Shown piece by piece: positions 1,764 to 44,416 of a DNA stretch of 64,000 bases; position 1 is the stretch's first letter; each line of letters begins with the position of its first letter. Under the pieces are notes generated by a model. That model was not told the DNA's origin. It did no database searches and saw only the letters and a list, made by a program, of their open reading frames with translations. The stretch comes from Deltaproteobacteria bacterium. Its GTDB lineage: Bacteria; Desulfobacterota_D; UBA1144; Nemesobacterales; UBA2774. The position numbers were made by a program, and so were the translations under genes. The stretch covers positions 632,692 through 696,691 of the forward strand of contig JAVKFU010000015.1 in NCBI GenBank assembly GCA_040223695.1, read 5' to 3'.

Positions 1764-1798
1764 CTATATACCTCCAATGTATTCAATGACGGAATAGT

Positions 1799-5714: not shown

Positions 5715-6037
5715 TTCTTGCCTCCCCGGTATTAATTTTATACATATTAATTGTGCATAATTCGTGCCGTACATACTATATATGCTTAACTAAGCGTTTT
5801 AGGGTGGTTACACGGTCCGCGAAATACCGGCACGCTGTACTGTGTCAGAAAATCTTACGCGTGTATCAGCCCTTACCGCTTAGCTTTTTTTATTTTCCGG
5901 CATACTGAACTTACCCAATGCTTCCTGGCTTCGGCCCCGGTGCTTTGCTCCGGAGCGGGGCCTTTCCTACCTGGTCTTCGGATATCACTTCCCAAAAAAT
6001 CAGCGGCAGATCAGATGTATCTCAACAGGAGTGCTTT

Positions 6038-24487: not shown

Positions 24488-24880
24488 ATGAATAAACCGT
24501 TAAAGATAAAAGACGTCTCGGAGTTAACGGGGCTAAGTAAACATACTCTCAGATACTATGAGAAAATAGGCCTGATTGACCAAGTAAAAAGGAGGGGTGA
24601 CGGCCATCGTTACTACTCCGAAAACGATGTAGCCTGGATAGAGTTCCTGAATAGACTCCGAGTAACGGGAATGCCTATAAGCCGGATGAAAACATTCGCA
24701 GATCTCAGGCGGAAAGGTAATTCAACAGCGGGGGAACGCAGGGAGATGCTCGAGAATTTTAAGGACGATTTATACCAAAGGCTGACTGATCTTAGTAAAC
24801 ATCTGGAGGCAATTGAGAAAAAGATAAAACATTACAAAGAACTTGAAAAAAAGACGAAGTCAATGAGGAGTAAGTCATGA
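24488..24880 (+). CDS. MerR family transcriptional regulator
   Basis: Start at MNKPLKIKDVSELTGLSKHTLRYYEKIGLI. HTH, then coiled-coil dimerisation helix. Confidence 0.85.
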   Translation: MNKPLKIKDVSELTGLSKHTLRYYEKIGLIDQVKRRGDGHRYYSENDVAWIEFLNRLRVTGMPISRMKTFADLRRKGNSTAGERREMLENFKDDLYQRLTDLSKHLEAIEKKIKHYKELEKKTKSMRSKS

Positions 24881-25269
24881 ACAAACAAAATGCAGTTGAA
24901 AAATTCTTCTCCGGAATCGGAGGGGGTAATATGGATGAGATTCTTGAAGCCGTTCATAAAGACGCGGTTTTTGAGGCACAGGGACCCGGTACAGTACCCA
25001 TTTACAATACATTTCACGGGAAAGAAGGAGTAACAGAGTTTGTGCGGATATTAGGTGAATTGTTCGATACAGAGGACTTTAAGGTGTATGTAACCGCCCC
25101 TCACGAAGATTATATTTTCGCCTACGGTCTGATGAAGCACCGGGTCAGGGCGACAGGAAAGATATTCGAGTGCGAATGGGCTCTGGTGTGTAAAATAAAG
25201 GAAGGTAAGATAATATCCTACAAGATGTTTGAGGATACCTTCGCGCTTGAGAGAGCATTTAAGGCTTAG
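24877..25269 (+). CDS. SnoaL-like/NTF2-like domain protein
   Basis: Start overlaps the merR stop by 4 nt (ATGA). About 130 aa with a ketosteroid-isomerase-like pattern. Confidence 0.6.
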   Translation: MNKQNAVEKFFSGIGGGNMDEILEAVHKDAVFEAQGPGTVPIYNTFHGKEGVTEFVRILGELFDTEDFKVYVTAPHEDYIFAYGLMKHRVRATGKIFECEWALVCKIKEGKIISYKMFEDTFALERAFKA

Positions 25270-25404
25270 CGCATGAGGCATTCGAAAAAAAGAGACAGAT
25301 ACAATATGCTTATAAGCAATTTAAGAACTCATACAGAGTAAAACCAGTATATAAACAAAAAATAGAGGATTGAATTAAATGTATCCTAGTTAATAATTTA
25401 TATT

Positions 25405-27006
25405 ATGTCTTCAGAAATAGTCAGATACATAAACAAAAAAGACGCCGAACTGCTTCATGAAATAGAACTAGCAGCTAACCAATCAGATCACGACACAGCT
25501 CTAAGATTAACAGAAGACAGACTCGCTAAACCTATCGATTTGTCTCGGCCATCAGAAAGACTACTTAAAGGATCACTAGCCGGTTGGCTAATTGACATAG
25601 GGACTGAATCCGGACAGGAACAAATTGTTAAAAAAGGTCTTTCTATCTTGGAGAATGAGGAGGCGGTCCTTCGTAAAAATGTAACTCAAGCCAGCTATGA
25701 TTATAATATTGGAAACGCTTATAGTTCATTATTTGACCTTAAAAAAAGTAAACCTGGTTTCAAATTAAATCCATCCGAAATCCAAGACATCGTTAAGAGT
25801 AAATCTCGATATTGGAGAGCTTACAAATCCCTACAAACACACGATAGAGCGTTCTGGGCAAAGTTGTGGGTCAACCTTGGTAATTGTTTGTTAAAATGCA
25901 ACCGAGTTGTAGAAGCGATTATATACTATGATGATGTAATTACTGAATATCCGAAATTTCCACAGGCAAATGCAAGCAGGGCTGATGCCTTACTCAAATT
26001 AAATGAAATATCAGATACCTATTCAATCAATTTACTCGCTCAAGCGATTGAGGGGTATTCAGTAGCAAGCGATTTTGCAGATACATTGTACAATCGTCAA
26101 GCTTGGCATATGCGCTCAGAATTACTGAAACAAAAATTATTAGAACATGGATACGACAGCAAAAATATAGAACATGAAACTTCCGAAACTGAATCAGAAC
26201 ATAATCAGCACTCAAAATATCGTAAATTTTGCTTAGAACAACATCTATCCCTTTCTGAGCATTCTATTTACTGTGGATGCGCTGGAGCTAGAAGTGATGA
26301 TCTCACAGTACCTAAATCATCCGGGCCAATAGGAGGTAATTTTGTTCCTAGAATGGAGTTCATATTAAATCGAGTTAAGTCAGAGTTTACATTTGCTAGA
26401 TTGATGTATTACCAAGCAGTACTTCCTTTAGAATCCGAATGGGACCTCTTGGAAGATGAAATCCGAATAACACAACTATTTGAGGATGAGATGCATGGCC
26501 CTCGCTCTGAAATGCTACGTCTGAGTTTTCGAAATTGTTTTGCAATACTTGATAAAATTGCAATGGCAATTTGCGAATTATTCGAATTAGCTCAGCCTAA
26601 GGAAGTATTATATTTTGAGAGCTTCTGGCGATCCCGATGGGAACGTATAAACCAAATCGATAATCCGGCAATAGTTGCCCTATACGCACTCGCTACAGAT
26701 TTAAATAGCAAAACAGGAGATTGGCCTGAGTTTAAAGAATGGCGTAATGCAATTGAACACAGAATCTTTTGTGTTCTTCAAAAGGAAAATTTTCACTCTG
26801 ACCCCTATTCTGTAGTTAATCAAAATGCAGGGGACCTAGTCGTTCCGTTAGATGTATTCCATCAGCGCGCTTTATTTTTATTAAGATTGACCCGTTCCGC
26901 TATATTCAGCTTTGTATTTTGTGTACGTTATGAAGGTTCTAAACTTACCGAAGGTGATCCTAGCAAAGCAATTACGCTAAGAGGCCGCAATGAGGAAAGC
27001 GGATAA
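25405..27006 (+). CDS. TPR-like + C-terminal HEPN-domain protein (LA2681-like; predicted RNase/defence protein)
   Basis: The C-terminal region contains RNAIEH, matching the HEPN Rx4-6H (RNxxxH) motif. The N-terminal about 250 aa are helical and TPR-like. The gene lies in a markedly AT-rich segment. Confidence 0.5.
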   Translation: MSSEIVRYINKKDAELLHEIELAANQSDHDTALRLTEDRLAKPIDLSRPSERLLKGSLAGWLIDIGTESGQEQIVKKGLSILENEEAVLRKNVTQASYDYNIGNAYSSLFDLKKSKPGFKLNPSEIQDIVKSKSRYWRAYKSLQTHDRAFWAKLWVNLGNCLLKCNRVVEAIIYYDDVITEYPKFPQANASRADALLKLNEISDTYSINLLAQAIEGYSVASDFADTLYNRQAWHMRSELLKQKLLEHGYDSKNIEHETSETESEHNQHSKYRKFCLEQHLSLSEHSIYCGCAGARSDDLTVPKSSGPIGGNFVPRMEFILNRVKSEFTFARLMYYQAVLPLESEWDLLEDEIRITQLFEDEMHGPRSEMLRLSFRNCFAILDKIAMAICELFELAQPKEVLYFESFWRSRWERINQIDNPAIVALYALATDLNSKTGDWPEFKEWRNAIEHRIFCVLQKENFHSDPYSVVNQNAGDLVVPLDVFHQRALFLLRLTRSAIFSFVFCVRYEGSKLTEGDPSKAITLRGRNEESG

Positions 27007-27087
27007 GCACTTCAATTTGACTTTCCGATATTTTGCTCTATTTAATGTATTTTAATATCAAAACACTGACTATGGAGGTACAAGTTA

Positions 27088-27408
27088 ATGATATGTCAGA
27101 ATTGTCGAGAAAACATAGATAGTGAAGATGCAAATCTGCCTTGTCCAAAATGCGGCTCAATGGACAGACAACTTCACATTAAGGATTCAGCAAATCTTGC
27201 TGATGCAGGCAACTTGATTAAAACCTTTTATAAAATACATCCAGAAATTCTTGTTTTGACAATATTGCTCGCCTTCATTGGAATATTAGTTGGAATACAT
27301 TTGAATCCGATTTATGGGGTAGTTATTAACTTTATAGATTTGACCTTGTTTTTTCTACTTCCACATTGGATAGAAAAAACAAATGAAAACTCTATCTTTA
27401 AGGAGTGA
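27088..27408 (+). CDS. small zinc-ribbon membrane protein
   Basis: CQNC...CPKCGS zinc ribbon followed by two TM helices. AT-rich, and co-located with the HEPN gene. Confidence 0.4.
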   Translation: MICQNCRENIDSEDANLPCPKCGSMDRQLHIKDSANLADAGNLIKTFYKIHPEILVLTILLAFIGILVGIHLNPIYGVVINFIDLTLFFLLPHWIEKTNENSIFKE

Positions 27409-27412
27409 AAAA

Positions 27413-30091: not shown

Positions 30092-33000
30092 TCAATTCAG
30101 TCTCTTCGCCCCCGCATCCTGTATCGCGCTCCTCAGTCTTCCGCCCTGCCGTATGCTCCTCACCAGCATGTTCTCTATCTCGGTCCCTATCGACGCCGCC
30201 GTAGCCCCCGAGCCTCCGTTCACGTTCACGTTGATATCCACATGCATCTCGCCTGAGCCTCCCTCGTCTCCGCCTATCCTCTCGACAAACCTGCTTAACA
30301 GTCCGTCCCCTGTGCCTATACTCTCACGGAACTGGTCCGCAAGCCCCGGCCCACTCGCCACAGCGCTCACGAACTGATTTATCAGCCCGGCCCTCAGCTG
30401 CACGAGCTGGTCCTCGGTCAGCACGGCCTCCCTTCCGTGCAGCACCGCAAGCGTCCCCCTGCCGAAGTCCCGTATCAACCCTCCCGTGCCCTCGGCGAAA
30501 CCCTGCACGTTCTGCAGCACCGACTCTATCGACCTCAGCACCACAAGCTGCTCGTCGTTTATACCCGCTATCGCCTGAAGTCCCTCGATCTCGTTATCGA
30601 ATCCGAACTCGCTCACTTCCTCGAGCTGCGCAAACCTCTCCTCCAGTATCCTTATATACTCCCCGCGTATGAACTCAAACAGCTCTATCAGCCTCTGCGA
30701 CGCCTGGAATGTATTCTGCGCCGTCTGCTCCCCTATGGCCGACAGCCTGTCCTGCAGCGCCTCTATCCGCGCGTCTATCCGCTCGATCTGCGCGTTCTGC
30801 TCCTGGGTCAGCCTCTCTATCTCGGCGTTTATCTCCTCTACTGACCGCCCCCTCGTCTCGGTCAGCTCCGCAAGCGCGTCGAGCCCTCCTGTTACCTGAT
30901 CGAATATAGCCACGAACTCGGGCGAATTCACTCCGAACGCGTCCCCGGCCACGTCGAACAGGGTTTTGAACGCGTCCTCGAGCCGGGCTACGATCTCGAC
31001 CTGCCTTTCGGGATCTACTGTACCGGCAAGCTCCTGCTGAAGCTGCGCAATATTCGACTGTAGCGCGTTTACCTGCTCCACTCCCGTGAGCACCGACTCC
31101 GGGCTGAACAGTATCGAGTCGAGCGTACGCCTTATGGATTCCGCAAGCGACGCGAACTCCTCCGCCAGCCTCAGCTCCTCGTTAAGCGCGTCTATACGCT
31201 CGTCAAACGCCTCCTGTATCCGCTCCTTCTCCTCGTTAAGCCCGTCTATTCTTCTCTCTATCGCCGCTCTTTGCGCCTCGGCAGCCCTTCGGGCCGCTTC
31301 CTGCCGCGCCTGAAAAGCCGCCTGCTCTTCGGCGAGCAATTGGTTCCCCAATCCCGCTAGGTCGTCCAGCAGCGCCTCCTGCTCCGAAAGCGACAGGTTC
31401 TCTATATTGTCCGTAAAGAAGCCCTGCACCTGCCCAATCGCCGTATTGAGGAACCCGGTCAGGTCCACTGAGCTTCCGCCGAATCCCGCGATAGTGCTGT
31501 TAAGCTGGCTTATCTTCCCAATCAGGCTCGATATGGAGCTTACGATTTCCGACGTCAGCGACAGTATCGCGTTTCTCAGCTCGACGTAGTTCTGCACCGT
31601 CTCCGGGTCAAGCTCTGCGTTCTTGATTAATTCCCCTAGCTCTTCCGTCAGTTGATCAATGGACGGCACGGCGTCGAATCCGAGCGTCCGGGAGAGCGAA
31701 TTTACGGAATTAATAGTCGTCCCTATCGCGTCATTTATATTCCCCTCTACTATGTTGAACGCATCGACAAAGGCGTTCAGATCGGCAAGCAGATCCTGCC
31801 CCACTGCCGCTCTCGCCTCCCTCGACCCTGCGCTCTCGAATTCCCGGAATCTCTCGTCGAGGAACGATGCCGCCGCATCGGGCAGTACCCCGAGCGACTC
31901 GAACATGGTCTGCAGGAATCCGTCCACCGCGAACAGGAACTTCGCCTGTATCTCCCCGTTTATAAGCTGATTGAATTTCTCCGCTATCTTCTTCCCCTTG
32001 GCGTCAAACTCGAAAAGCCTCTCCCCCGCGACTACCGTCTCCGTATCAAGCTCCGTATTCAGAAGCTCGTCCGTGAGCTTGTCCGCGAGGTCAGCCGGAA
32101 GCTTGTTGATAATATCCAGAAGGTTATTTACTGCCCCCTGTATCGCGTCGCCTAGAATCTCCTTTATCTTATCCGAGCCGCCAACGCCCAAACCGGCGCT
32201 TCGCTTTACGGATATGTCTATTATGTCGTTTATCAGGGTATCGGTGTCGAGCAGTTCGGATATAAACGCCGCCCTGCGCTCGCCTTCTTCTTTTATGCTG
32301 TCAAACTCTATGTCCAGACGAGGTGTCTTCTTGAATAAGCCGGATAGTAATGGGATGGCTAATGCCGCGGCAACGGCAACTGCACCGAGAATTGACAAAG
32401 CTCCACCTATCCCGCCAATACCTGCAAGAAATCCGGTTGATGGAAGCTCCCCGGCAGCTAAAGTCCCTACACTCACTCCACCGGTCAATCCTCCGACACC
32501 GAGACTTCCTGGCACAGCTGTAGCGGGTATTGTTGCAGCCGCTCCGCCTGCAAATCCAAATAGACCTGCAATTCCGGAACCGCCACCTAATATATCTCCA
32601 ATACTTCCGCCTATACCACCAACACCGCCAACAATATCTGCGCTTCCTCCAGCGCCTCTGGCACTTCCTGCCAACCCGAACAGTGCCCCAATACTTACCA
32701 CAATCTGCTTTGTGACAATCGCCGCAACAAGGTCGAGAAACGACCTGAGTATCGCCTCAAAAGCCTGCTTCACCAAGTCCTTTAAATCCTCAAACTTCCC
32801 GGTCAGCACGTTGAAAAATAAGTCGGAGAAATTCTGACTCATCTGGCTGAGTGTGTTAGCAAAGAAATCCGCTATGAGTTCACTATTCGACCCTACGGAT
32901 TCAACAAAATCCTCGAACCCCTGTTTTATTCCCTCAAAGAATCCGCCAGATTCATTCAGGTTTTCCACTCGCTCCGAAAACTCATCTAACCCCCCATCCG

Positions 33001-34027
33001 CCGCCGTTTGAGCCGCAGTATCTACACCCTCCACACTCGTGCTCATCGTGTCTATAGACTTGCTTGCTTGTCCGGTCTGGTCTATCACACCTTGAAGCCC
33101 GTCTTGACTTAGGTTGTTGGTAGATTCTGTAACATCCTCAGTAACACCGAGAAGTTCCCCCAACTCTTCTTTCGTATGCCCGAATATTACTGCCCCTTCC
33201 CCCGCGTTTTTAACTAAATCAACAAGAGATGTCGAAAATTCACCCTGCGCTGTAGTCCCTTCCTTCATCGCCGCAGACTGCTCCAAGGCCGATTCTCTAG
33301 CTTTATCGTATTGCAGACTAAGACCCTGTAATGTCAGACGGAGGGTCTTAAAACCCCTGTCTTGTTCATCAATTGCCCTTTGTAATTGCGTTGATACTGA
33401 TGGTCCAATAAATTCCTCTAAGCCACGACGTTGAAAATCCTCAACTTTTAGGTCAGGAATGTCAACCGTTAATTCAGGAATTTCTATACCCTCGATTTTA
33501 CCAAATTCTTCATTCAAATCACTCTGTAGCGCTTCTCTATATGCCTGCGCTAACTCTTCAATTGTTCTTCCTTTCGCAAGAAATTGTTCAAATTGTCTTT
33601 TAGCTATTTCTTGCAAATTACCTTCAATAGGTTCTGCTTTTTGGGGATTAACAAAAGGTCTTAGATCTACTGGCAAATCAACTATCACGCTTTCATTAGT
33701 GAACGGTTCCAGAATATCTTTAATAAGCAAGTTGATATTATGACCAATTTCCGCAGCCTGTTCACCACCAATCAACTTTGCAGCGTTCGTTAAAATATTT
33801 CCAAATGGAGAATTTGTTTTAAAAACTCTGTCAAATGCAGATTCCGCTTGTTTCATTGACGATTCAACATCTTTATTAAACTTGAAAAAAGTAGATTCTG
33901 ATGTTTTAGTAATAAACTCAAATCCGTCTCTAAATTCTTCGAATGTACTATTAGCTGTCTTTCCTAATTGTATTAATTGCTCATCTTCTACAATAAACTT
34001 GACCGTAATTTCATTTATCTCTGCCAT
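30092..34027 (-). CDS. giant helical protein, phage tail tape measure protein-like
   Basis: 1311 aa with no signal peptide. Long coiled-coil segments. A central Gly-rich hydrophobic block, GGIGGSIGDILGGGSGIAGLFGFAGGAAA...ALAIPLLSGLF, is typical of tape measure proteins. An AT-rich promoter region lies upstream. Confidence 0.5.
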   Translation of the reverse strand: MAEINEITVKFIVEDEQLIQLGKTANSTFEEFRDGFEFITKTSESTFFKFNKDVESSMKQAESAFDRVFKTNSPFGNILTNAAKLIGGEQAAEIGHNINLLIKDILEPFTNESVIVDLPVDLRPFVNPQKAEPIEGNLQEIAKRQFEQFLAKGRTIEELAQAYREALQSDLNEEFGKIEGIEIPELTVDIPDLKVEDFQRRGLEEFIGPSVSTQLQRAIDEQDRGFKTLRLTLQGLSLQYDKARESALEQSAAMKEGTTAQGEFSTSLVDLVKNAGEGAVIFGHTKEELGELLGVTEDVTESTNNLSQDGLQGVIDQTGQASKSIDTMSTSVEGVDTAAQTAADGGLDEFSERVENLNESGGFFEGIKQGFEDFVESVGSNSELIADFFANTLSQMSQNFSDLFFNVLTGKFEDLKDLVKQAFEAILRSFLDLVAAIVTKQIVVSIGALFGLAGSARGAGGSADIVGGVGGIGGSIGDILGGGSGIAGLFGFAGGAAATIPATAVPGSLGVGGLTGGVSVGTLAAGELPSTGFLAGIGGIGGALSILGAVAVAAALAIPLLSGLFKKTPRLDIEFDSIKEEGERRAAFISELLDTDTLINDIIDISVKRSAGLGVGGSDKIKEILGDAIQGAVNNLLDIINKLPADLADKLTDELLNTELDTETVVAGERLFEFDAKGKKIAEKFNQLINGEIQAKFLFAVDGFLQTMFESLGVLPDAAASFLDERFREFESAGSREARAAVGQDLLADLNAFVDAFNIVEGNINDAIGTTINSVNSLSRTLGFDAVPSIDQLTEELGELIKNAELDPETVQNYVELRNAILSLTSEIVSSISSLIGKISQLNSTIAGFGGSSVDLTGFLNTAIGQVQGFFTDNIENLSLSEQEALLDDLAGLGNQLLAEEQAAFQARQEAARRAAEAQRAAIERRIDGLNEEKERIQEAFDERIDALNEELRLAEEFASLAESIRRTLDSILFSPESVLTGVEQVNALQSNIAQLQQELAGTVDPERQVEIVARLEDAFKTLFDVAGDAFGVNSPEFVAIFDQVTGGLDALAELTETRGRSVEEINAEIERLTQEQNAQIERIDARIEALQDRLSAIGEQTAQNTFQASQRLIELFEFIRGEYIRILEERFAQLEEVSEFGFDNEIEGLQAIAGINDEQLVVLRSIESVLQNVQGFAEGTGGLIRDFGRGTLAVLHGREAVLTEDQLVQLRAGLINQFVSAVASGPGLADQFRESIGTGDGLLSRFVERIGGDEGGSGEMHVDINVNVNGGSGATAASIGTEIENMLVRSIRQGGRLRSAIQDAGAKRLN

Positions 34028-34217
34028 TTCCAGTACCTTGATTAACGTATCGACAAATTAATCTTTCACTATACGTTTACTTTATTCCTTAGATAGATTT
34101 ATAGGTGTTTGCTTGCAATCCCTCTATATTTAGAACCCTTTATTTATATTGTTGATTAATGGATACATATATGTAATTACTTAACTAGACTTCATATTCT
34201 TATTCTTTTATAATAGC

Positions 34218-34544
34218 GTGATGAAAGAAATCTGCTCCAATTGTCTTTACACCGGTGAGTCCGGTCATAGCGGAAGAAATGCTTGCAGGTTCCCTTTGGC
34301 GGGCCTGCTATTGGGAGTGGGTGTAAACGGTATTACAAGCGTAATACCGGATAGTGAAACTTCCGGTTCCACGCTCGTACTCGTAATAATTACTATTGCT
34401 TGTTTATTTACCGCCTTCTATTTACTTTACAGGTGTATCAATAAGAGCAGGAGAGCATGTCCCAAGTGTAACTATGGCGATATGATTGAGATGAATACCC
34501 CGGAAGCGGACAAACTAGTGGAGCAACATAGCCTGAAAAATTAG
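34218..34544 (+). CDS. split zinc-ribbon membrane protein, paralog 1 of 4
   Basis: N-terminal CSNC, two TM helices, C-terminal CPKCNYGDMIEMNTPEADKLVEQHSL. Confidence 0.55.
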   Translation: MMKEICSNCLYTGESGHSGRNACRFPLAGLLLGVGVNGITSVIPDSETSGSTLVLVIITIACLFTAFYLLYRCINKSRRACPKCNYGDMIEMNTPEADKLVEQHSLKN

Positions 34545-34566
34545 TTTTATATTCTCAAATACAAAC

Positions 34567-34914
34567 ATGCAAAAACTTTGCCCAGAATGTAACTATATTG
34601 GATACGAATCCCGTGGACAGAAATCACTTTTAATATGGGGAATAGCTTTAACTATTTGGGGAGCAATAACACTACTTGGCGCACTTATGCTTTATTCCTT
34701 TTCCGTTAGGATACTTGCGTCAGTAATTTGGCTCTCATTTGGTGTTGTTACCTTATATTACTACATTCATTACCCAAACATATGCCCAAACTGCAAGCAG
34801 AAAAAAACCATGATCCCTCTCGACACTCCCAAAGCCCAGGCCCTAATTAAAGATCACAACCTGACTATCCCGCAAGAAACATCACAACAGTCCAGCCCCA
34901 AAACCACTCAATAA
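34567..34914 (+). CDS. split zinc-ribbon membrane protein, paralog 2 of 4
   Basis: MQKLCPECNYIGY..., two TM helices, ...CPNCKQKKTMIPLDTPKAQALIKDHNLT. Confidence 0.55.
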   Translation: MQKLCPECNYIGYESRGQKSLLIWGIALTIWGAITLLGALMLYSFSVRILASVIWLSFGVVTLYYYIHYPNICPNCKQKKTMIPLDTPKAQALIKDHNLTIPQETSQQSSPKTTQ

Positions 34915-34959
34915 CCGAACATATCTACCATCCTTTTTTATCTGTCATTCTGAATGTAA

Positions 34960-35245
34960 ATTAGAAATCTCGTCTTTGTATTACCCTTCTCGACATTCAC
35001 GGAATTGGCGTTAAGAAAATAGAATATTGAGGCGTAAAAATCTTTCCGGGACGATTTCGAGCTAGCGAGGAATTGGACGCCCTTTCCTATAAGAAATAAT
35101 GTAATTAGTCTCGCTTCACTAAACCACGATTCTAATCAGGGTTGAATTAAAAGATTTTAGCCGAGATAGCCCATTTTTAGCCACATTCCGTGCAGTCGGT
35201 GATTTTTGCTTCTTTTCATCTAGGAAAAGAAGAAAGATGATTTAT
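34960..35245. repeat. modular composite intergenic repeat, copy 2 (full length)
   Basis: About 85% identical over about 280 bp to the 45.76-kb copy. Confidence 0.8.
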
Positions 35246-35655
35246 CTTTTTCCCGCCCAGCCTGAACCTTTCGAAGAATGTCATTTAGAGCGCAGCCGAG
35301 AAATCTATTCATTTATCCTTTAGAGTCTGTCATTCTGAACCCTGTCCTGAACTCGTTTCAGGATCATTTCAGAATCTCGATTTTCATCTTTCAATCCTTT
35401 AATTCCCTCCTTAGTAAAAGGAAACGAATGCGAACGTGTGAGCATTTAGACGCCTTTAGTTAAAAGCACTTATGCCCATTATCTACCGGCACATAAACTC
35501 TTGGAATAAAATAGGGTGGATTTAAAATACAATATAAAAACCTCACCTACGCCGCTAGCCTATACTCCACTTCCTCTACATTAACCTTATTATCATATAA
35601 CTGAACGACCACTCTCCCTTCATCCTCAAAATCCCAACTGTGTTATAATTTCCTG

Positions 35656-36030
35656 ATGCAAAAACTCTGCACCAATTGCAATTTCATCGGCAAAGGTAAG
35701 CACGGCCTCTTGTCCGGCAATATCTATGTCGGAATAATAGAAGTAGTTGTGGCGGTAATTATACTCTTTACAGGCCAGAAGCTCCTTCAGTCTTTTATAT
35801 ACGGAGCCGTGGTCGCGGCAATAGTAGCAATAGCCGGACTGATAAATATTATGGACTCGTTCTCGGAGGGCCGGCTCTGCCCTAACTGCGGCAAGGACAA
35901 GATGATCCCGCTCGACACTCCCAAAGCCCAGGTCCTCATCCAAGAACACAACCTCACAGTCGGCGATAATGTCCCCCAAAACACGCAGAATGACCAAAAA
36001 CCAGACCAGTTTGAAGCCCCCAAATCTTAA
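35656..36030 (+). CDS. split zinc-ribbon membrane protein, paralog 3 of 4
   Basis: MQKLCTNCNFIGKG..., two TM helices, ...CPNCGKDKMIPLDTPKAQVLIQEHNLT. Confidence 0.55.
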   Translation: MQKLCTNCNFIGKGKHGLLSGNIYVGIIEVVVAVIILFTGQKLLQSFIYGAVVAAIVAIAGLINIMDSFSEGRLCPNCGKDKMIPLDTPKAQVLIQEHNLTVGDNVPQNTQNDQKPDQFEAPKS

Positions 36031-36214
36031 ATCCATCTCTTAACTTCCATTCATAACCAACTATTATTCCAACATATTTATAGTAACACTGCAATACTTC
36101 GACCCACCTTTGCAACCACAGCGCCACAACCCCGCTTTTGTTTTTTTCATTCCCCCCCTTAGAAAAAGGGGATACAGGGGGATTTTTCCTATTTCTTATT
36201 CCCTAATGCCTTTT

Positions 36215-36395
36215 CCTTTCCCGACATTCACAGAATTGGCGTTAAGAAAACAGATTATCGAGGCGTGAAAATCTTTTAGGAATGGGGCTGAATTAACAGA
36301 TTTTAGCCGAGATGGTCTGTTTTTAGCCAAATTCTGTTAAGTCGATGATTTTTGCTTCTTTTTATCAAGAAAAAGAAGATATAATTTTTTGCTTT
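36215..36395. repeat. modular composite repeat, partial copy (modules B+D)
   Basis: Contains cccgacattcacagaattggcgttaagaaaacag...gatttttgcttctttttatcaagaaaaagaag. Confidence 0.7.
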
Positions 36396-36522
36396 TTTCC
36401 CTTGTCACTACATGTCGGGTAAAACCTCTCGGCAATCTCAAACCCCCCTTATCCTGAGCCCGGTCAAAGGATAAATACATGCCCCGCTTTCAATCCCTCA
36501 CCCATCCATTATCCTATCCCTG

Positions 36523-36930
36523 GTGAAAAAACTCTGCACAAACTGCTTCTACATCGGATACGAAGACAGGTCCACACACGGGAGCTTCAAGACCGAGTCC
36601 ATCCTCTGGGCGGTTGCCTTTGTCCTCGCATTCACGGGCGTTTTCGAGTCCGACCTATGGCTGCCGGCAACCATAACATTCGCACTCGCCTTTTTCTATA
36701 CTCTGACCATCTTCAGGGTAAAGATATGCGTCTGCCCAAGGTGCGGCCGCGACTCCATGATCCCGCTCAAAACCCCCAAGGCGGAGGCTATAATTCATGA
36801 GCACCACCTCGTGATGCCCAGCGAATTCAAAAATCCTGCGCGCACGATCTTCGGCCTCACATTCCGCGACGCGCTCCTCATCCTCACCACCATCCTTATA
36901 ACCGTCATGCTCTACAACCACTTCACCTAA
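36523..36930 (+). CDS. split zinc-ribbon membrane protein, paralog 4 of 4 (GTG start)
   Basis: VKKLCTNCFYIGY..., TM helices, ...CPRCGRDSMIPLKTPKAEAIIHEHHL. An extra C-terminal TM helix is present. Confidence 0.5.
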   Translation: MKKLCTNCFYIGYEDRSTHGSFKTESILWAVAFVLAFTGVFESDLWLPATITFALAFFYTLTIFRVKICVCPRCGRDSMIPLKTPKAEAIIHEHHLVMPSEFKNPARTIFGLTFRDALLILTTILITVMLYNHFT

Positions 36931-36939
36931 CTACTCATT

Positions 36940-37900
36940 CCCACTTAATCCTTTTTCTCCCTCTCTCTTGAGGGAGAGGGTAAGGGTGAGGGGGCACCTT
37001 CTGTTAAGTCGGCGATTTTTACTTCCTTTCATCAAGGAAAAGAAGATATAATTTTTTGACTTACCCTTGTCATTGCGAGCGCAGCGCGGCAATCCCAAAT
37101 CCGTCATGCTGAACTTGTTTCAGCATCTAACCCTTTGCCTTTCCCCTTCCGTCATTCTGAATTCATTTCAGAATCTAGAATTTTGCTTTTGCCTCCCTTT
37201 CACCCCTCCATAATCTCAAGAATCCTATTGACTCCATACCCCCAAATCATCTATAATAATTACGGAGGTAATTATGACAAGCGAGTGTGACAGCCCACCA
37301 GACAGGTTGGTCGAAAATTCGTGAGATCCGAAAATGGTGAGTACTTAAACAATCACCATAAATAATAGCTAAAACTAGCTATTGCTTAAAAAAAGCATAC
37401 AAACCAAAAAGGGAGCCACAGTGCTCCCTTTTCCATTTCTAGATATAGTAAACATTATTTGTCATTACAAACGAATGTGAGAAATCTAACCCTTGCTTTT
37501 TCTTCGTCATCGCAAACCGCAAAGTGGAACGACAACGTCGCATTATCGAAGTTTGTCATGCTGAACTACGATTTCGAGTAAGTAAGGAATCGGGTCCATT
37601 GACAAATTGCAACCGAGTAAGTATTCCCCTATCATGCCAGTCCAAACCCAAAACTTTCAGCATCTAGCCTTTCGTCTTGTCCATTCTGACATTCACATAA
37701 TTAGCGTCAAGAAAATCTTATGTTGATGCGTCAAAATGTTTTGGGCCGGGGCGGAATTAAAACATTTTAGCGTTAACATGAGATTTTTAGCAATATTATG
37801 TGCAGTCGGTGATTTTTGCTTCTTTTCATCTAGGAAAAGAAGAAAGTCTTTATCTTTTAGTCATTGCGAGTGGAGCATATTATGCGTAGCGCGGCAATCT
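36940..37900. repeat. about 1-kb non-coding cluster of stacked repeat units
   Basis: Contains the gagggagagggtaagggtgagggggc hairpin, a D-module end at 37.00-37.05 kb, gtcattgcgagcgcagcgcggcaatc, gtcatgctgaa, cattctgaattcatttcagaatc, a gtcatgctgaactacgatttcgag...gaggaatcgggtcc C-type unit, and a B+D composite at 37.69-37.87 kb. Confidence 0.75.
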
Positions 37901-37910
37901 AATCTTTTCA

Positions 37911-38240
37911 TTAAGAGCCAGCAATACCCCTACGGCGCCCGAGAGCCTCAATCCCTTCCCCCTTGGCGCCCCTTTTCATTTTCCTCTCCTGAGACTTCAG
38001 GGCAAACTCTCTGAACGCCTCATCCACGGCAATCACTACCCGAAACGCCCTCATCTTCGGATGCCCCTCGAACTCTAGCTTCTCCAGGTTATTCCATATC
38101 TCGGAATGCACCAGTGTGCCTACGGTCATCCCCTGCCCGTAGCGCTGAGACTGGCATAGCTCCCATAGAGATACCCACTCCCGCTGGTGCTGGGGGAGGT
38201 TCCGTATAAATCCTTCCGTCTCGTCCCCCGCCTTTTTCAA
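37911..38240 (-). CDS. downstream -1-frame ORF of a G/GT-like pair (candidate frameshift extension)
   Basis: Its frame is open upstream to about 38476, so it overlaps the last about 52 codons of the 38321..38890 ORF in the -1 frame. No conventional start or RBS of its own. Basic sequence. Confidence 0.4.
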   Translation of the reverse strand: MKKAGDETEGFIRNLPQHQREWVSLWELCQSQRYGQGMTVGTLVHSEIWNNLEKLEFEGHPKMRAFRVVIAVDEAFREFALKSQERKMKRGAKGEGIEALGRRRGIAGS

Positions 38241-38320
38241 TATGCGAAGCTCGTCCCTGTCGTTCTTTTCAAACTTGAGCCTGTTCTTCCGCCTGAGTTT
38301 CCTCTTTTCTTCGAGCTGAC

Positions 38321-38890
38321 TTACCCTGCGTCTGATTGAGTCTGCGCGGTACCTTCTTTTTTCCCCTTTGAAGCGGACTTCGAATCCCTCGTATATCCGC
38401 TCGAAGTACTCCCTGACTCTTCCAAAAAATTTTCCTCTTCTTTCTTCTCCTCCTTCGTGACCTTGCCGGCTATGAGCTCATAGCTCGACCTGAAGTTGCT
38501 AAGCAGGAAAGAGGACTTACAGAACTCATTGTAGAGCCATTCTTTAGTGTCCTTGTCGTATAGCACCCGCTCGCCCTTGTCGGTAAGCCCTGTAATGTCC
38601 TGTATGAGGTTATATACCAGGAACTTCGCGGCGCGCTTCGGGTCTCCTCCGAGAATCTTGAAGCTCCTGTCCTCGACAGTCAGGTCTTGCGTAAGGTCCC
38701 TTATCTGAGTAAGCCTCGCCACTGTCGGGTACGGACACTTGAACCCCACCTCGCGCCAGCCCTCGTCGTAACCCACCCACTCGCCTTTCTCGTCCTGGTA
38801 AGCGGGCCAGTCCTCATCCTCTATATCCCTGTAGGGATATATCGTCACATAATTTGATACATGTTTGGTCAAACTCTTAATTTCAGGCAT
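38321..38890 (-). CDS. acidic protein, phage tail assembly chaperone (gpG)-like candidate
   Basis: 189 aa, acidic (EDEDWPAYQDEKGEWVGYDEGW). Its 3' end holds T TTT TTG (about 38422-38428) and GGGGAAAAAAG (about 38355-38365), both inside the overlap with the downstream -1 ORF. Confidence 0.4.
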   Translation of the reverse strand: MPEIKSLTKHVSNYVTIYPYRDIEDEDWPAYQDEKGEWVGYDEGWREVGFKCPYPTVARLTQIRDLTQDLTVEDRSFKILGGDPKRAAKFLVYNLIQDITGLTDKGERVLYDKDTKEWLYNEFCKSSFLLSNFRSSYELIAGKVTKEEKKEEENFLEESGSTSSGYTRDSKSASKGKKEGTAQTQSDAG

Positions 38891-39130
38891 ATCCCCTCCT
38901 TTACACTATTGCACTATGTCATTCTGAACTTCGTCCTGAACTCGTTTTTCAGGATCTATTCAGAATCCAATCCCTTCCCGCTCATCCTGAGCCTAGTCGA
39001 AGGATGTCATTGAGTGGTTGCAAAGCAACAGCGGCAATCCCGTCTTTCTCTCGTCATTGCGAGCCGCAAAGCGGCGCGGCAATCTCGTCCTTTCCCCTCA
39101 ATCATTTAATCCCCTACCGGGAAAAGAAAA

Positions 39131-39178
39131 GCTAAAAAAGGGCTGTTAGCATTCATTTATTGAATATAAACAGCCCCT
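39131..39178 (-). terminator. rho-independent terminator after the 491-aa gene
   Basis: Minus-strand hairpin aggggctgtt-loop-aacagccct, followed by a TTTTTT run. Confidence 0.55.
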
Positions 39179-39190
39179 TAGCAATAATCC

Positions 39191-40666
39191 TTAAACAACG
39201 GCCTCAACCATATCCTCAACTGTTGGCTGGTTGTTCTTCACCGTAACTGTAATGTCCGTATTCGGCGCGCTGCTGGTATCAAGCCTGCCAAGGAAGCTCT
39301 TCTCATCCGTCACCGGGTCCTTCGAGCTCACGCCCGGATGCGGACTCCCCTCGAACTTGGCTTTGGGCACGCTCATTGTCACCTGATGGCTGTTGTCACC
39401 GATATAGGTCCATATAAAGTCGAGCTGCGTCTCTGTTCCCGCAACTGTCTTCTCAGCGAATTGCTGGCTTCCGTACTGATAAGTGAATGAGCCGCTTACA
39501 GATCCTTCCCCGGGGGTGATCGCGCCCTTGATCGGCGACCCTACGACGAAGTTACCCTGTATGGTATTCTCGATCACGAGACTCAGGTTTTCAAACTGGT
39601 TTGTGGTCTGCTCCACACTGTCCACCTGCACGCTCGATTCCCAATGTGCGTAAGGAATGTTTTCAATCGAGGCCGGAGTCCCGAATATGTTCTCTGACAG
39701 TATTTGAAATGCCTTCCCTACTACGTTCATATTGAGCTGCGGAAGGTCGGTCGGGTCCACGTTAAGAGTAAGATTGCTTACCTTGTTCCCCCTGATAAGC
39801 ATGAGCGATTCAATATCGGTAAACCTCAGAAGGAAACTGATACCCTCGGGAATGGTGGAGCCTCTATAAATCGTATGTGTGAAGGGTTTAATTACTTCAT
39901 CGCACGCCGCCCCGTTAGAGTGAGCCTTCCTGAGCCCGTTGGGATGAGCAGCCGAGTCCAGCGTAAGCTGCCCCGCAGCCGTGCTGCCTATCTTTACAAT
40001 CTCTGCGTCATTTCCCGTGCTTAACTGAGCAAACTCACCGGCTGCGAAACCAACTTCGGATGTCACTGATACCGTTGTATCTCCGGCGGAAGCCGCTGCC
40101 GACAAAGTCGTACTTGCCCCCGCTGTTGACGTTCCGACTGTGGTGTAATCACTATTCAAGGCGTGTAAGTAAAACAGCCCCACTGTCGCTATATCGAGCT
40201 CAACAGTCATATCCGCTCCTGTGTCATAGTTTCCCTCACGGAAGTTTGAAAGTACACGCGAGCCGGAGAGCGCCTGCGACCTCTGCAGATCTCTTCCGCC
40301 GGACGGTGTGAAGGACCTCACGTTACCTAGCTTGAACCAGTTATTAGCCGGGTCTACCTCAACCACAGCCTCCCCCGATTCATGCCTGTAGTTTATCTTT
40401 GTGTTCGCGTCGAGACTCACCGTCGTGCCAGACACGTAACCTGCATCCACCTTTACGAATTCCATATTGTTGTCGTTCCCGACCTTAAGAATATCCCCCG
40501 CCGCGATATTAGTATCGCTCGCTACCGTAACGCTAGTCGCTCCGGGGTTAACAGCTGCGGCAAGCGTAGTGGACGCTCCGCCCCCGACCGCGGCTGACGG
40601 CGTCACGCCGTTTACCTGTTCAATCTTGTACCAAATCTCCGCACTTGAGCCTGAAGCCTGTGCCAT
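39191..40666 (-). CDS. hypothetical structural protein with two tandem ~100-aa N-terminal domains; possible phage major tail protein
   Basis: 491 aa, no signal peptide. Thr/Ser/Ala-rich and beta-rich. An internal duplication is visible (ASTTLAAAV...TSVTVAS...AAGDILKVGND / ASTTLSAAASAGDTTVSVTSEVGFAAGEFAQLSTGND). The phage assignment rests on gene-order context only. Confidence 0.3.
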   Translation of the reverse strand: MAQASGSSAEIWYKIEQVNGVTPSAAVGGGASTTLAAAVNPGATSVTVASDTNIAAGDILKVGNDNNMEFVKVDAGYVSGTTVSLDANTKINYRHESGEAVVEVDPANNWFKLGNVRSFTPSGGRDLQRSQALSGSRVLSNFREGNYDTGADMTVELDIATVGLFYLHALNSDYTTVGTSTAGASTTLSAAASAGDTTVSVTSEVGFAAGEFAQLSTGNDAEIVKIGSTAAGQLTLDSAAHPNGLRKAHSNGAACDEVIKPFTHTIYRGSTIPEGISFLLRFTDIESLMLIRGNKVSNLTLNVDPTDLPQLNMNVVGKAFQILSENIFGTPASIENIPYAHWESSVQVDSVEQTTNQFENLSLVIENTIQGNFVVGSPIKGAITPGEGSVSGSFTYQYGSQQFAEKTVAGTETQLDFIWTYIGDNSHQVTMSVPKAKFEGSPHPGVSSKDPVTDEKSFLGRLDTSSAPNTDITVTVKNNQPTVEDMVEAVV

Positions 40667-40803
40667 ATTGTTCCACCTCCGGTTTTTATATAAAAAAGCC
40701 CGGAACGGCCTGAACCGCCCGGGCTTATATTTTTAATTTGTTATTAGTCATCCTGAATTTATTCAGGATCTAAACTTTTATGATCTAATCCGCTTTCATG
40801 AGA

Positions 40804-41931
40804 CTAGTAATTGATAATCTTCCCGTTCTCATCCCATCCTGTAGTCCTCTGATACTGGCTTTGAAAATCATTACGCCAACTGTCGTTCCACTTCCAGTCG
40901 CCGCTTTTTATCTTCCACGTGTTATAGTCCACACTGTTGTCAGCCGATTCGGCATCGAAAACTTCCAGCGCAGCTACACCGGGGTTAGCGCTCTGGAAAT
41001 AGTTATTTTGAATCTCATTATTCGAACTCTTCCATATGCCCAGATGAGTATGGCTCGTATCGTCTGTTGAAGGATACTTTTCAAGTATAAATTTATTATT
41101 GGTAATTCTAGAATTTCGCACATGATGATATATGGCCATTCCCCAGGAATTATCCTCGATCAGGTTTTTTTCGATATCCAGATTTTCTATCCAGGTTGAG
41201 CATTTCGAGCCGTTCATCTGAATCCCCCTGCCCCCGTGATTTCGTATTACGTTACCGCGAATAGCAACTCCGGAAATCCCCTTGCACTCGAAATCAGATA
41301 GATATATGCCGTGGCAGTGTTTGGGACTCGAGCCCCGCCAGTCCTTGTTGTAGCACTCCCCTTTTCCAGTCCCGTTCGACTCTATTATGTTATTTTCGAT
41401 TGTTATATTATCAGTCGATATGATCAGGATTCCCTGATACGTGTTTCGGTGAATTTTATTATTCCGTATGATATTATTGCCTTTGTAAAGCTTTACCCCG
41501 TCCCAGCCTTTCATTACTTCAAAACCCTGAAACACGATCCATTCGGCGTCGATCTCGACCCTGTCGCCTTCGCCCTTTCCCGGAACGATAATAGGCTTAT
41601 GTCCGGGGTAGGCTTCGATTGTAATCGGTCTCAGACGTGTCCCGCTGTTTTTGACAACAATTTTTCCGGTATAGACACCGCCTATTACCCTGATAATATC
41701 ACCCGGGACTGCTGAATCGACAGCTCCCTGTATGGTTGTGTAATCGCCGTTAGCGCCCGGCGCAACTATCTTCACAGATGGCAAGCGCGCACCTGCTGAT
41801 TCGACGCAATCAGCGCAGCTGGAAGGATCGGAGAGAGTGTAAACGCCTCCCACCACAGCCGGGGCCTGGTCGATAAAATATAGAGGTAAAATTGCAGTCA
41901 AGACAACTGACAGAATTGCCGTCGATTTCAT
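40804..41931 (-). CDS. secreted right-handed parallel beta-helix repeat protein (pectate-lyase-fold; possible depolymerase/tailspike-like)
   Basis: Signal peptide. Repeated NNxIxxN / GxxIxxN beta-helix coils: NNIIRNNKIHRN, ITIENNIIESNG, IRGNVIRNHGG. Confidence 0.6.
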   Translation of the reverse strand: MKSTAILSVVLTAILPLYFIDQAPAVVGGVYTLSDPSSCADCVESAGARLPSVKIVAPGANGDYTTIQGAVDSAVPGDIIRVIGGVYTGKIVVKNSGTRLRPITIEAYPGHKPIIVPGKGEGDRVEIDAEWIVFQGFEVMKGWDGVKLYKGNNIIRNNKIHRNTYQGILIISTDNITIENNIIESNGTGKGECYNKDWRGSSPKHCHGIYLSDFECKGISGVAIRGNVIRNHGGRGIQMNGSKCSTWIENLDIEKNLIEDNSWGMAIYHHVRNSRITNNKFILEKYPSTDDTSHTHLGIWKSSNNEIQNNYFQSANPGVAALEVFDAESADNSVDYNTWKIKSGDWKWNDSWRNDFQSQYQRTTGWDENGKIINY

Positions 41932-42204
41932 AATTTACCAGTTGGCTTCCAGACTTGGCGCTGGATAACCGTTTAATATTATAACTGCCAGACATAGTAA
42001 ATAGCTTTTTACGAATTTAATGCATCTTCCACCAGCCTCAGAACCCGACAAAGATTTTTATTTTCCCCTTCCTTTAACATTTTTTACCTTTTACGTTTTT
42101 AAAAATCATCCTGAATTCATTTCAGGATCTCGTCTTTTATAGATACATTCGCAATTTCCCGCCGGTTTCTAGAGCACAACGTCCGTCTATATAAAAATCG
42201 GCTA

Positions 42205-42906
42205 TTAATAAATAGTCCTCCAGGCATAAGCATCCGCCGCGTCCTTTGCGCAAACTTCAATAGTATCCTTTACTCCCGCATTACCTTCTACCATCCAAAA
42301 TTTGCCTCTTTCAGAAACGCTGCAAGTTGGTTTAACAACAGCCCCTCCGTTATCAGAAATTTTAATCCCCCCCGCTTCAACGGAAACCAGGCTCTTTGCA
42401 TAAATACTATCGGGTCTATTGGCGCCGGTTTTCCCAATATCGCCGCTTGCGTCAGTATTAAATATAAAATCACCATCGTAAATTCTAACTCCAATAACAC
42501 GAGAAATACTAGCTACAACAACTCCGTTACCCCAAAACTCAATATTGTTAACACCATTCATTTTAATTCCAGTATCGTCATCTTCGCCTACCAGTCTCTG
42601 GTCAAATATAATTATGTTGTTAGCACCACCTTGGCCTATAACTGTCTGGTCACTTGTATTGACTGAAAGTAAATTTATATCTGCTGTATTAGCTGCGTTC
42701 CTAGCTTTTATAAGAGTAGAGTTATTAGGACCTTTCAGTGAAGCAGAACCAGTTAGGTTGATATCGCCCGCCATACTCCCGCCGGATTTCGGCAGGACAT
42801 TGGAGGGAATTATAATGTCTGCTTCAATAATATCCTCATTGATCTGCGATTGAGCATAACTTGAAATAAGAATTATAAATACGATAACGAGTATAAATTT
42901 TCTCAT
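42205..42906 (-). CDS. secreted protein with tail-fibre-like SGGSMAGDINL motif
   Basis: Signal peptide. LPKSGGSMAGDINLTGS resembles the GG[ST]M[TA]G motif of phage tail fibre proteins. Confidence 0.4.
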   Translation of the reverse strand: MRKFILVIVFIILISSYAQSQINEDIIEADIIIPSNVLPKSGGSMAGDINLTGSASLKGPNNSTLIKARNAANTADINLLSVNTSDQTVIGQGGANNIIIFDQRLVGEDDDTGIKMNGVNNIEFWGNGVVVASISRVIGVRIYDGDFIFNTDASGDIGKTGANRPDSIYAKSLVSVEAGGIKISDNGGAVVKPTCSVSERGKFWMVEGNAGVKDTIEVCAKDAADAYAWRTIY

Positions 42907-42950
42907 GGATTTCTTTTTTACCTCAATTCACCATTCATTCCGAATGTCCC

Positions 42951-43676
42951 TCAGTTTTTCCAAACTCTACGAGTACTGCCTCCTAGCGGCTGCTTTATTT
43001 CAGCTGCTACAGCAGCCCAATCATTACTTGCACTACCGCTCCAATCATATGTTTGACTTGATGAACTTATGGCAGTAACCCCGCTGATGGACAAATCAGG
43101 TCCCTCTGCTATATTTGCTTGCTCTGTCTGTCCAAGATCAGCAGAAAAAGTCAATGCCGCATTGTCTTTATAACACCCTAATGCAATATTTGCACTTTCA
43201 CCGTTTATGGCATTAGGCACGTGAGTAAGAGCTATGCTTGTAGATGCAGCCGCTGTATTTGAAGCGGTTATATCAGGTGCTTCATCGGCTGCATCTATAA
43301 TCGAAACAGCTATCGCTATTCTGTCTGCTGAATTTGCGCTCAAATCGAATGAGACTGTATTTATGCCGATTGCCGGATTTGTAAGATAATAAATAGAACA
43401 AACACGTAAATTATTATTTATCTGGTCAACGGCTTCCGTCAAAGCAACACCGTTATAAGTTAATGAGCTCACAGATTTTGCGGAGGTACTCTCTACACCT
43501 ACTAACACTACCAGGTAATCACCGTTATTGTCATGATTAAAGGTAAGAGTTGCTTGGTTCGTACCCGATCTCTGAGCAGAGGTTACATTACCAATAGAGA
43601 TAGAAAAAGCACTCTCATAAGCTCCAAAAAACATTAATAATAAAAATAAAGCCATATTAACAATAAAACGCGTCAT
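42951..43676 (-). CDS. hypothetical secreted protein (paralog A)
   Basis: Signal peptide. The C-terminal ...GGSTRRVWKN is shared with the next gene. The two genes overlap by 4 nt. Confidence 0.45.
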   Translation of the reverse strand: MTRFIVNMALFLLLMFFGAYESAFSISIGNVTSAQRSGTNQATLTFNHDNNGDYLVVLVGVESTSAKSVSSLTYNGVALTEAVDQINNNLRVCSIYYLTNPAIGINTVSFDLSANSADRIAIAVSIIDAADEAPDITASNTAAASTSIALTHVPNAINGESANIALGCYKDNAALTFSADLGQTEQANIAEGPDLSISGVTAISSSSQTYDWSGSASNDWAAVAAEIKQPLGGSTRRVWKN

Positions 43677-44386: not shown

Positions 44387-44416
44387 TTAACAAAACTCCC
44401 TTAATCTATTGGGAAA

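Follow-up and report, generated by a model that had tools for sequence, protein, structure and literature searches.

Two hallmarks of HEPN ribonucleases are an Rx4-6H motif closing helix 3, whose arginine is followed by a polar residue (PMC3710099), and a conserved acidic residue in helix 2. In the HepT/MntA type VII toxin–antitoxin system, the HEPN protein HepT (~130 aa) is neutralized by the adjacent MNT nucleotidyltransferase through AMPylation. The single-gene or ATPase-fused HEPN nucleases of the defence or anticodon type, ApeA, PrrC, RloC, and DS-11 CBS-HEPN (PMC13092281), share one concept, in which a module for regulation or sensing is joined to an HEPN RNase, and genes of the ApeA/PrrC/RloC type often adjoin restriction-modification (R-M) genes. 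The LA2681 family (PF18733), in which TPR repeats precede the HEPN domain, is discussed in the literature that we found by one table line of the 2013 HEPN survey (Anantharaman et al. 2013, PMC3710099). Here, we analyze an LA2681 gene and a small gene downstream of it, which together form an AT-rich two-gene cassette in a 64,000-nucleotide stretch (hereafter the window) of contig JAVKFU010000015.1 from a Deltaproteobacteria bacterium. We favor, with a probability of roughly 0.6, the reading that the cassette encodes a TPR-gated RNase of the conflict or defence type, accompanied by a lineage-specific small membrane accessory.

The 533-aa protein is a member of the LA2681 family

The cassette consists of two co-oriented open reading frames (ORFs) of 533 and 106 aa between a SnoaL_2 gene and a PNPOx_N gene (Table 1). 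A preliminary description of this DNA had delineated the same ORFs and had read the longer product as a TPR and HEPN protein, naming the LA2681 family; both readings are borne out. The 533-aa protein matches HEPN_LA2681 with 126.7 bits, compared with a gathering cutoff of 27. The match spans profile positions 7–204 of 204 at aa 314–510 and is the sole HEPN-clan Pfam match of the protein. One TPR_1 repeat in the fused N-terminal domain exceeds the Pfam threshold, and an identical protein already carries the LA2681-family name in NCBI. The family is widespread, with >250 clusters of homologues in many bacterial phyla, on plasmids, and on prophage-type contigs. Nearly all homologues are 515–550 aa long and align end to end. 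The 533-aa protein is a bona fide member of this family.

The AlphaFold2 (AF2) model of the protein has a predicted local distance difference test score (pLDDT) of 90.3 and a predicted template modelling score (pTM) of 0.92. The TPR superhelix is packed onto the HEPN domain in this model at high confidence. The HEPN domain comprises helices H1 (aa 313–339), H2 (aa 366–392), H3 (aa 441–452), and H4 (aa 482–515), with an insert (aa 393–440) between H2 and H3 and a β-hairpin between H3 and H4. This secondary structure agrees with the canonical HEPN layout of PMC3710099. The RNAIEH sequence that the preliminary description had picked out as the HEPN motif lies at aa 447–452, where R447-N448-A-I-E451-H452 closes H3, and H2 contributes the acidic residues E369 and D383. 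R447, N448, E451, H452, E327, E369, D383, and R508 are invariant in 68/68 full-length members from ~15 phyla. The HepT/MntA HEPN toxins are the closest structural matches of the protein. A sequence-profile search of the PDB with the 533-aa protein returned TPR proteins only, indicating that no solved LA2681 structure is detectable by sequence.

Conservation extends beyond the HEPN domain. In the TPR domain, N157 and R167 are invariant, and Y100, N104, L158, E170, D176, and L196 are nearly invariant. The linker between the two domains carries a block, LSEHSxYCxC...D, comprising L283, H286, Y289, C290, C292, and D298. Among the 68 full-length members, H286 is conserved in 66 and C290, C292, and D298 in 67 each. 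A metal site is one possibility for the block, a second functional site another. A His/Cys3 zinc site formed by H286, C290, C292, and C378 was considered and is unsupported: one clade loses C378 and C390 together, while H286, C290, and C292 stay.

The small gene is a lineage-specific companion

The 106-aa protein has the two features ascribed to it previously. Residues C3, C6, C19, and C22 (nt 27094–27153) form a CxxC...CxxC zinc ribbon at aa 3–22, and a hydropathy scan places two transmembrane helices at aa 54–72 and 75–93 (nt 27247–27366). The sole database entry for this protein is an 82-aa form starting from Met25 (P0121), which is without the zinc ribbon. Likewise, the public gene call P0123 is short (80 aa) and omits the zinc ribbon. 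We prefer the 106-aa reading because a GGAGG lies 9 nt 5′ of its ATG, because the homologue at the related locus L001 shows 61% identity along its whole length and keeps both CxxC pairs (the HEPN proteins there being 69% identical), and because the ratio of nonsynonymous to synonymous substitution rates (dN/dS) relative to that homologue is 0.21 with codons 1–24 (27088–27159) also constrained (proportions of nonsynonymous and synonymous differences, 0.20 vs 0.53). An ungapped dN/dS estimate for the HEPN gene against L001 was discarded on account of indels, which lower the apparent identity to 29%. Purifying selection acts on both ORFs.

A third pair occurs at locus L091, where the C-terminus of the HEPN protein is 78% identical and the arrangement is the same, including the CxxC...CxxC N-terminus of the small protein. 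Among 1.84 billion representatives searched exhaustively with HMMER, only 25 small-protein relatives reach E <= 1e-3, and the four cysteines and P92 are invariant over 12 members of the small-protein family. Across the LA2681 family, 114 immediate neighbours were surveyed at ~70 loci, 67 of them with a full-length LA2681 gene. An adjacent, co-oriented gene for a zinc-ribbon and transmembrane protein is present in the window subclade only (three lineages). Therefore, the small gene is a real, lineage-specific companion of the HEPN gene, not a defining family partner. The preliminary description had proposed it as a partner of the HEPN protein. That proposal holds for the pairing conserved in the three lineages; it does not extend to the rest of the ~70 loci, where the gene is absent, or to the distant homologues, which stand in unrelated contexts.

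A 44–46% identical lineage of the small protein (L085 1331–2684; L100–L103) is encoded 247 nt downstream of a 260-aa PIN-like protein. The PIN match of this protein is partial (27.3 bits, cutoff 23.6), and a BrnT toxin gene is adjacent. A metagenome scan with a four-sequence alignment of the small protein recovered only this PIN-linked element again, in five metagenome assemblies.

The 3′ end of the small gene contains an AU-rich hairpin (27346–27382) with 12-nt perfect arms over the conserved LPHW codons. The 73-nt segment has a dG of -18.5 kcal/mol (z = -3.6). Lying upstream of PNPOx, the hairpin may act as a signal for transcription or translation.

The cassette is compositionally foreign

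The preliminary description had noted a sharp drop in GC at the cassette, and the drop is there. The interval 25290–27410 has 36.35% GC, compared with 46.5% window-wide, and is the minimum of all 2121-bp segments in the 64 kb (z = -2.57; the 0.08% of such segments that are equally low are the island itself). The left and right flanks have 46.1% and 46.2% GC. The GC content at third codon positions (GC3) is 0.291 in the HEPN gene and 0.292 in the small gene, compared with a mean of 0.54 (s.d. 0.11) for 62 long ORFs of the window; the adjoining SnoaL and PNPOx genes have 0.469 and 0.567. Other 1-kb bins in the window also reach 38% GC, indicating that the drop is distinctive at the gene scale, not unique in kind. 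The two-gene cassette is thus foreign in composition.

The same pair at L001 is AT-rich as well (37.7% and 34.0% GC, flanks 55–59% GC), and its neighbours are unlike those in the window: a CMD gene lies upstream, and a reverse-strand NTP_transf_5 gene lies downstream. Across the family, LA2681 genes are AT-richer than their flanks at 64 of the 67 loci (mean difference, -7.2 points; p = 2e-11). Together with carriage on plasmids and prophage contigs, the deviant composition and the recurrence of the pair among other neighbours support the horizontal origin suggested in the preliminary description. Neither outcome that the preliminary description had named as refuting it, an unrelated fold in place of HEPN or a GC content indistinguishable from the contig average, was observed.

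The right edge of the cassette is sharply defined. DNA homology between the window and L001 covers 25486–27394 and ends 14 nt 5′ of the stop codon of the small gene. For the PNPOx gene, ATG 27413 is the most likely start, in preference to 27383; the product then has 131 aa, the same length as in L001. The PNPOx gene therefore does not overlap the small gene. Its ribosome-binding site, AAGGAG, precedes this start and falls in the final codons of the small gene, which narrows the right junction to a few nucleotides.

At the left edge, a sigma-70-like site (TTGAAT-16-AATAAT, 25370–25397, + strand) ends 8 nt 5′ of the HEPN ATG. No Shine-Dalgarno sequence is visible before this ATG (25405); the leader of the HEPN mRNA may be very short or missing altogether. 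Compared with shuffles, the 25370–25404 region is not enriched in promoter-like sites. The two intergenic regions of the cassette fold no better than shuffles, and there is no Rfam match; a partner or antitoxin RNA in the island was rejected on these grounds.

Table 1 Features of the cassette and its edges (positions in the window).
Feature	Position	Strand	Details
SnoaL_2 gene	24877..25269		Left neighbour of the island; Pfam
Upstream intergenic region, left island edge	25270..25404	+	26.7% GC
TPR and LA2681-family HEPN protein, 533 aa	25405..27006	+	Pfam PF18733 E=1e-36, TPR_1; AF2 model
N-terminal TPR superhelix	25405..26205	+	aa 1-267, ~14 helices
Linker motif LSEHSIYCGCAGARSD	26251..26298	+	aa 283-298; just 5′ of the Pfam HEPN boundary
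HEPN four-helix domain	26341..26949	+	aa 313-515
Rx4H motif RNAIEH, predicted catalytic	26743..26760	+	R447, N448, E451, H452; C-terminal end of HEPN H3
Spacer between the two genes	27007..27087	+	81 nt, 29.6% GC; GGAGG at 27074-27078
Small protein, 106 aa	27088..27408	+	Zinc ribbon and two transmembrane helices
Right junction of the island	27395..27412	+	L001 DNA homology ends 27394; PNPOx homology begins 27413

About 2.7 kb past the downstream end of the island is a phage-like tail module (30092–45109, - strand). It contains a 1311-aa tape-measure-like ORF, a Phage_tube_2/phrog_290 gene (39191–40666), and genes for a beta-helix tail-spike-like protein (40804–41931) and a minor-tail-like protein (42951–43676). 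The module is probably a prophage or a tailocin-like element. ORFs with an island-like GC3 (0.28–0.32) are located in or near this phage-like region (42205–43676 and 46937–47287), which suggests further foreign DNA in the window.

Genomic contexts of the LA2681 family

Relatives in genome contigs were found by an alignment-driven scan; a single-protein scan yielded none. The LA2681 gene is usually solo across the family, and most of the 114 surveyed neighbours are singletons.

R-M genes adjoin several relatives. A Type IIG R-M gene is directly upstream of LA2681 in L008, L013, and L080. An HsdR-N/SWI2-SNF2/S24 fusion is upstream in L015 and L018. In L003–L005, genes for an Eco57I-type methyltransferase and a BsuBI/PstI restriction endonuclease are downstream (e.g., L005 2857–5339). 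KAP NTPase, PRTase-CE, and DUF6079 neighbours are single cases each. Genes for Type IIG or Type I-like R-M, KAP, or PRTase-CE thus adjoin several relatives and are missing beside many others. The nearest neighbour of the window protein in a neighbour-joining tree is L001, and the R-M-linked L003 joins next.

Other relatives are carried by mobile elements. Distant members are found on 19 plasmid records, six of them conjugative. One plasmid copy lies among RHS and polymorphic toxins, an Imm27 immunity gene, a WYL protein, and a PD-(D/E)XK nuclease, and another adjoins IS256 and a recombinase. Six prophage-type contigs in IMG/VR carry an LA2681 gene. In addition, one LA2681 protein is listed as a ‘predicted novel defense gene’ in the machine-learning predictions of DefensePredictor.

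In 11–12 distant relatives, the LA2681 gene is associated with genes of the Rtc RNA-repair operon, and the catalytic motif of these copies is intact. In Psychrobacter, Acinetobacter, and a gammaproteobacterial metagenome-assembled genome (MAG), the order is RtcR (divergent) / RtcB - LA2681 - (DUF6847) - RtcA, with gaps of 1–80 nt. Such embedded copies are seen in L049, L051, L060–L066, and L069 (gene at ~6001–7500 of each). In a Chitinophagaceae MAG (L044), LA2681 (717–2159) is followed 13 nt downstream by RtcB (2182–3648). The Rtc linkage is therefore independent at least twice, in the Moraxellaceae/gammaproteobacteria and in the Bacteroidota. The Rtc-linked copies are ~32–35% identical to the window protein and form a distant clade in the tree. 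RtcA also lies 5.4 kb from the homologue P0003 in L003. In the 64-kb window, a tblastn search for RtcB and RtcA found neither. The link between LA2681 and Rtc was not found in the searchable literature, which did not cover the RNA-repair survey of Burroughs & Aravind 2016, where it may be described.

Three further proteins accompany LA2681 in some lineages. A DUF6847 protein (~155 aa) is encoded between LA2681 and RtcA in Psychrobacter and Acinetobacter (L059–L061 and L069; e.g., L060 7485–7940). Upstream of the L003–L005 homologue (57% identical) is a gene for a 226-aa protein whose N-terminus bears a zinc ribbon, CKWC...CKTC (L005 222–902), and which is not homologous to the small protein of the window. 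In the Enterobacterales Citrobacter, Rahnella, Moellerella, Pantoea, and Phytobacter (L038, L039, L042, L043, and L067; ~1777–5877), a conserved 1356-aa protein is encoded 12 nt upstream of LA2681. The 1356-aa protein has weak N-terminal P-loop/STAND-like matches only; with LA2681, it is a possible two-gene system.

Proposed function and alternatives

By analogy with the HEPN superfamily (PMC3710099), the 533-aa protein is predicted to be a metal-independent endoribonuclease. R447, N448, and H452, aided by the acidic residues of H2, would cut RNA to leave 2′,3′-cyclic phosphate and 5′-OH ends, and the active site is probably dimeric. The TPR superhelix is most likely a sensor or an autoinhibitor, with a protein or peptide ligand controlling the RNase activity. 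Such gating would explain why most family members are solo genes without an antitoxin. Since several TPR positions are invariant across phyla, the ligand would be a conserved one, or the contact intramolecular, and not a fast-evolving phage target. Activation would most likely lead to growth arrest or abortive infection. We infer this conflict or defence role because the contexts of the family are mobile, AT-rich, R-M-adjacent, and of plasmid or prophage type. The small protein would be anchored in the membrane through its helical hairpin and is co-inherited with the RNase gene; it is probably a regulator, a tether, or an immunity factor, and may interact physically with the RNase.

A number of observations weigh against this reading. 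In the window, the surrounding genes serve metabolism or regulation (MerR, SnoaL, PNPOx, ECF sigma, SpoIIAA-like) rather than defence. Housekeeping genes such as LigA, TilS, UbiD, and AdoHcyase adjoin many relatives, and the commonest immediate neighbours in the family, RtcB (9) and RtcA (8), are not defence genes either. No model in NCBIfam, PADLOC, or PHROGs matches either cassette protein; in particular, PADLOC-DB v2 gives 0 families for either protein at E<=1. By E-value, Foldseek gives the HEPN fold no significant support. The 2013 survey is the only literature found that names the family. At the island, there is no integrase, tRNA, or terminal repeat; the window as a whole has no tRNA, and the island edges show only short repeats at chance level. 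A PNPOx gene lies <1 kb from the cassette in both the window and L001, on opposite sides, and its aa identity between the two (67%) is comparable with the values for the cassette genes (69% and 61%). The likelier history is thus a long residence, not a recent arrival; the cassette was probably present in the common ancestor of the two lineages and then locally rearranged, with its low GC kept. As for the accessory, a hydropathy scan of neighbours found no small gene beside 64 of the 67 full-length LA2681 relatives, and remoter relatives of the small protein (<= 38% identity) are encoded beside ribonucleotide reductase, VKOR, glycine-cleavage, or unknown genes. In sum, the defence or abortive-infection module of the preliminary description is plausible, but PADLOC lacks a model for it, its neighbours in the window do not serve defence, and the relatives in Rtc operons leave room for another reading.

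The explanations that compete with a conflict RNase and its accessory differ in what they take the functional unit to be. It is somewhat doubtful, though worth serious thought, that the 533-aa gene works alone and the small ORF is an unrelated hitch-hiker. The solo habit of the family, the unrelated contexts of small-protein relatives, and the close relationship of the three HEPN-linked cases (HEPN proteins 69–78% identical, so that shared ancestry could suffice) speak for it. However, the pair stayed adjacent while the flanks were rearranged between the window and L001, both genes have the same deviant GC3, and a predicted RNase also precedes the small protein in its next-closest lineage. The opposite view ties the two genes closely, as a toxin–antitoxin or immunity (addiction) module in which the small protein is the antidote to the HEPN toxin and the main role is self-maintenance, not phage defence. 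The pair is indeed tight, co-oriented, compositionally uniform, and co-inherited in three lineages, a homologue of the small protein is paired with the PIN-like protein in a BrnT-containing locus rich in toxin–antitoxin genes, and HepT/MntA toxins are the closest structural matches. We nevertheless consider such a module very unlikely: most full-length LA2681 genes are without the small gene, so this antidote is not generally needed, and no MNT nucleotidyltransferase is present. A downstream gene with its own ribosome-binding site and a membrane product is also atypical of type II and type VII antitoxins, and the remoter relatives of the small protein stand beside housekeeping genes.

The remaining alternatives concern the enzyme itself. 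LA2681 could be an accessory of RNA repair or processing that trims or re-cuts damaged RNAs (tRNA, tmRNA) to give RtcB clean 2′,3′-cyclic phosphate and 5′-OH ends, or that makes 2′,3′-cyclic phosphate fragments activating RtcR, in which case the window copy would be stand-alone with an rtc locus elsewhere. The position of LA2681 inside the Rtc gene order, the independent case of L044, the frequency of RtcB and RtcA among the neighbours, the RtcA gene in L003, the intact catalytic residues of the Rtc-linked copies, and the match between expected HEPN products and RtcB substrates (PMC3710099, PMC11090510) are all consistent with it. We regard it as the chief rival yet as unlikely for the window protein, which has no rtcB or rtcA in its 64 kb and whose nearest clade is linked to R-M instead, the Rtc-linked copies being a distant clade. 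The AT bias, the patchy distribution, and the plasmid and prophage carriage fit a mobile conflict gene better, and since pairing of a toxin with repair is a known conflict theme, the Rtc linkage is compatible with a toxin. The conflict-RNase and RNA-repair readings are not mutually exclusive. That the protein is a TPR scaffold without catalysis, its HEPN-like domain serving only to bind a ligand or RNA, is extremely improbable: non-catalytic HEPN families do exist, but inactive families lost the Rx4-6H motif (PMC3710099), whereas R, N, E, and H here are invariant in all full-length members.

If the TPR-gated conflict RNase that we favor is real, a single-polypeptide RNase of this kind joins the bacterial conflict systems, and LA2681 between rtcB and rtcA would be a natural source of the 2′,3′-cyclic phosphate RNA ends that are sensed and repaired by Rtc and whose origin is still debated. 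A bolder combination, which we put forward as speculative and quite unlikely, makes the small protein an exchangeable membrane partner of RNase effectors (LA2681 in three lineages, PIN-like in one) in an undescribed membrane-linked RNase system of two genes. In the same scheme, LA2681 enzymes would be ‘repairable’ RNases wired to RtcB/RtcA ligation, an idea that arises from LA2681 genes embedded in rtc operons, and the two would jointly make a reversible TPR-gated RNA-cleavage switch in stress or immunity. The window locus mainly confirms the existing automatic annotation and adds a lineage-restricted companion gene. Beyond the preliminary description, the analysis adds the limited scope of the small partner, its PIN-like-linked recurrence, the conserved His/Cys block, and the Rtc-operon relatives.

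Comparison with known systems

The window protein has the full-length profile match, the ~530-aa TPR and HEPN architecture, and the Rx4H motif of the LA2681 family (PF18733; PMC3710099) and itself shows no difference from it. The optional context given for the family, ‘in operon with TPR’ (PMC3710099), is not seen here, as no separate TPR gene adjoins the window gene. Compared with HepT, the window protein has a fused 267-aa TPR domain, a large H2–H3 insert, and ~10% identity, and its locus has no MNT gene. In accordance, no nucleotidyltransferase domain is found in the window neighbours; the NTP_transf_5 gene downstream of the pair in L001 is on the opposite strand. The lactococcal Abi proteins with HEPN domains (AbiD/F, AbiJ, AbiU2, and AbiV) give no profile match, and AbiV (9bj7) is reached at a Foldseek E of 4 only. 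TPR-type sensors of peptides or proteins, such as the Rap/NprR/PlcR receptors and the TPR sensor arms of STAND/Avs immune proteins, differ in another way, since the window protein is without a helix-turn-helix, phosphatase, or STAND NTPase module.

Two comparisons bear on how the enzyme might be used. In the Rtc operon (RtcR-RtcB-RtcA), the expected HEPN products match the substrates of RtcB and RtcR, and distant relatives are linked to it; the 64 kb of the window contain no rtc genes. In the concept of an HEPN RNase fused to a sensor, the window protein resembles ApeA, PrrC, RloC, and DS-11 CBS-HEPN, and R-M genes accompany LA2681 in L003, L008, L013, and L080 as they accompany ApeA/PrrC/RloC-type genes. 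The putative sensor here is a TPR superhelix, in place of the ABC ATPase, CBS, or ApeA N-domain of that group.

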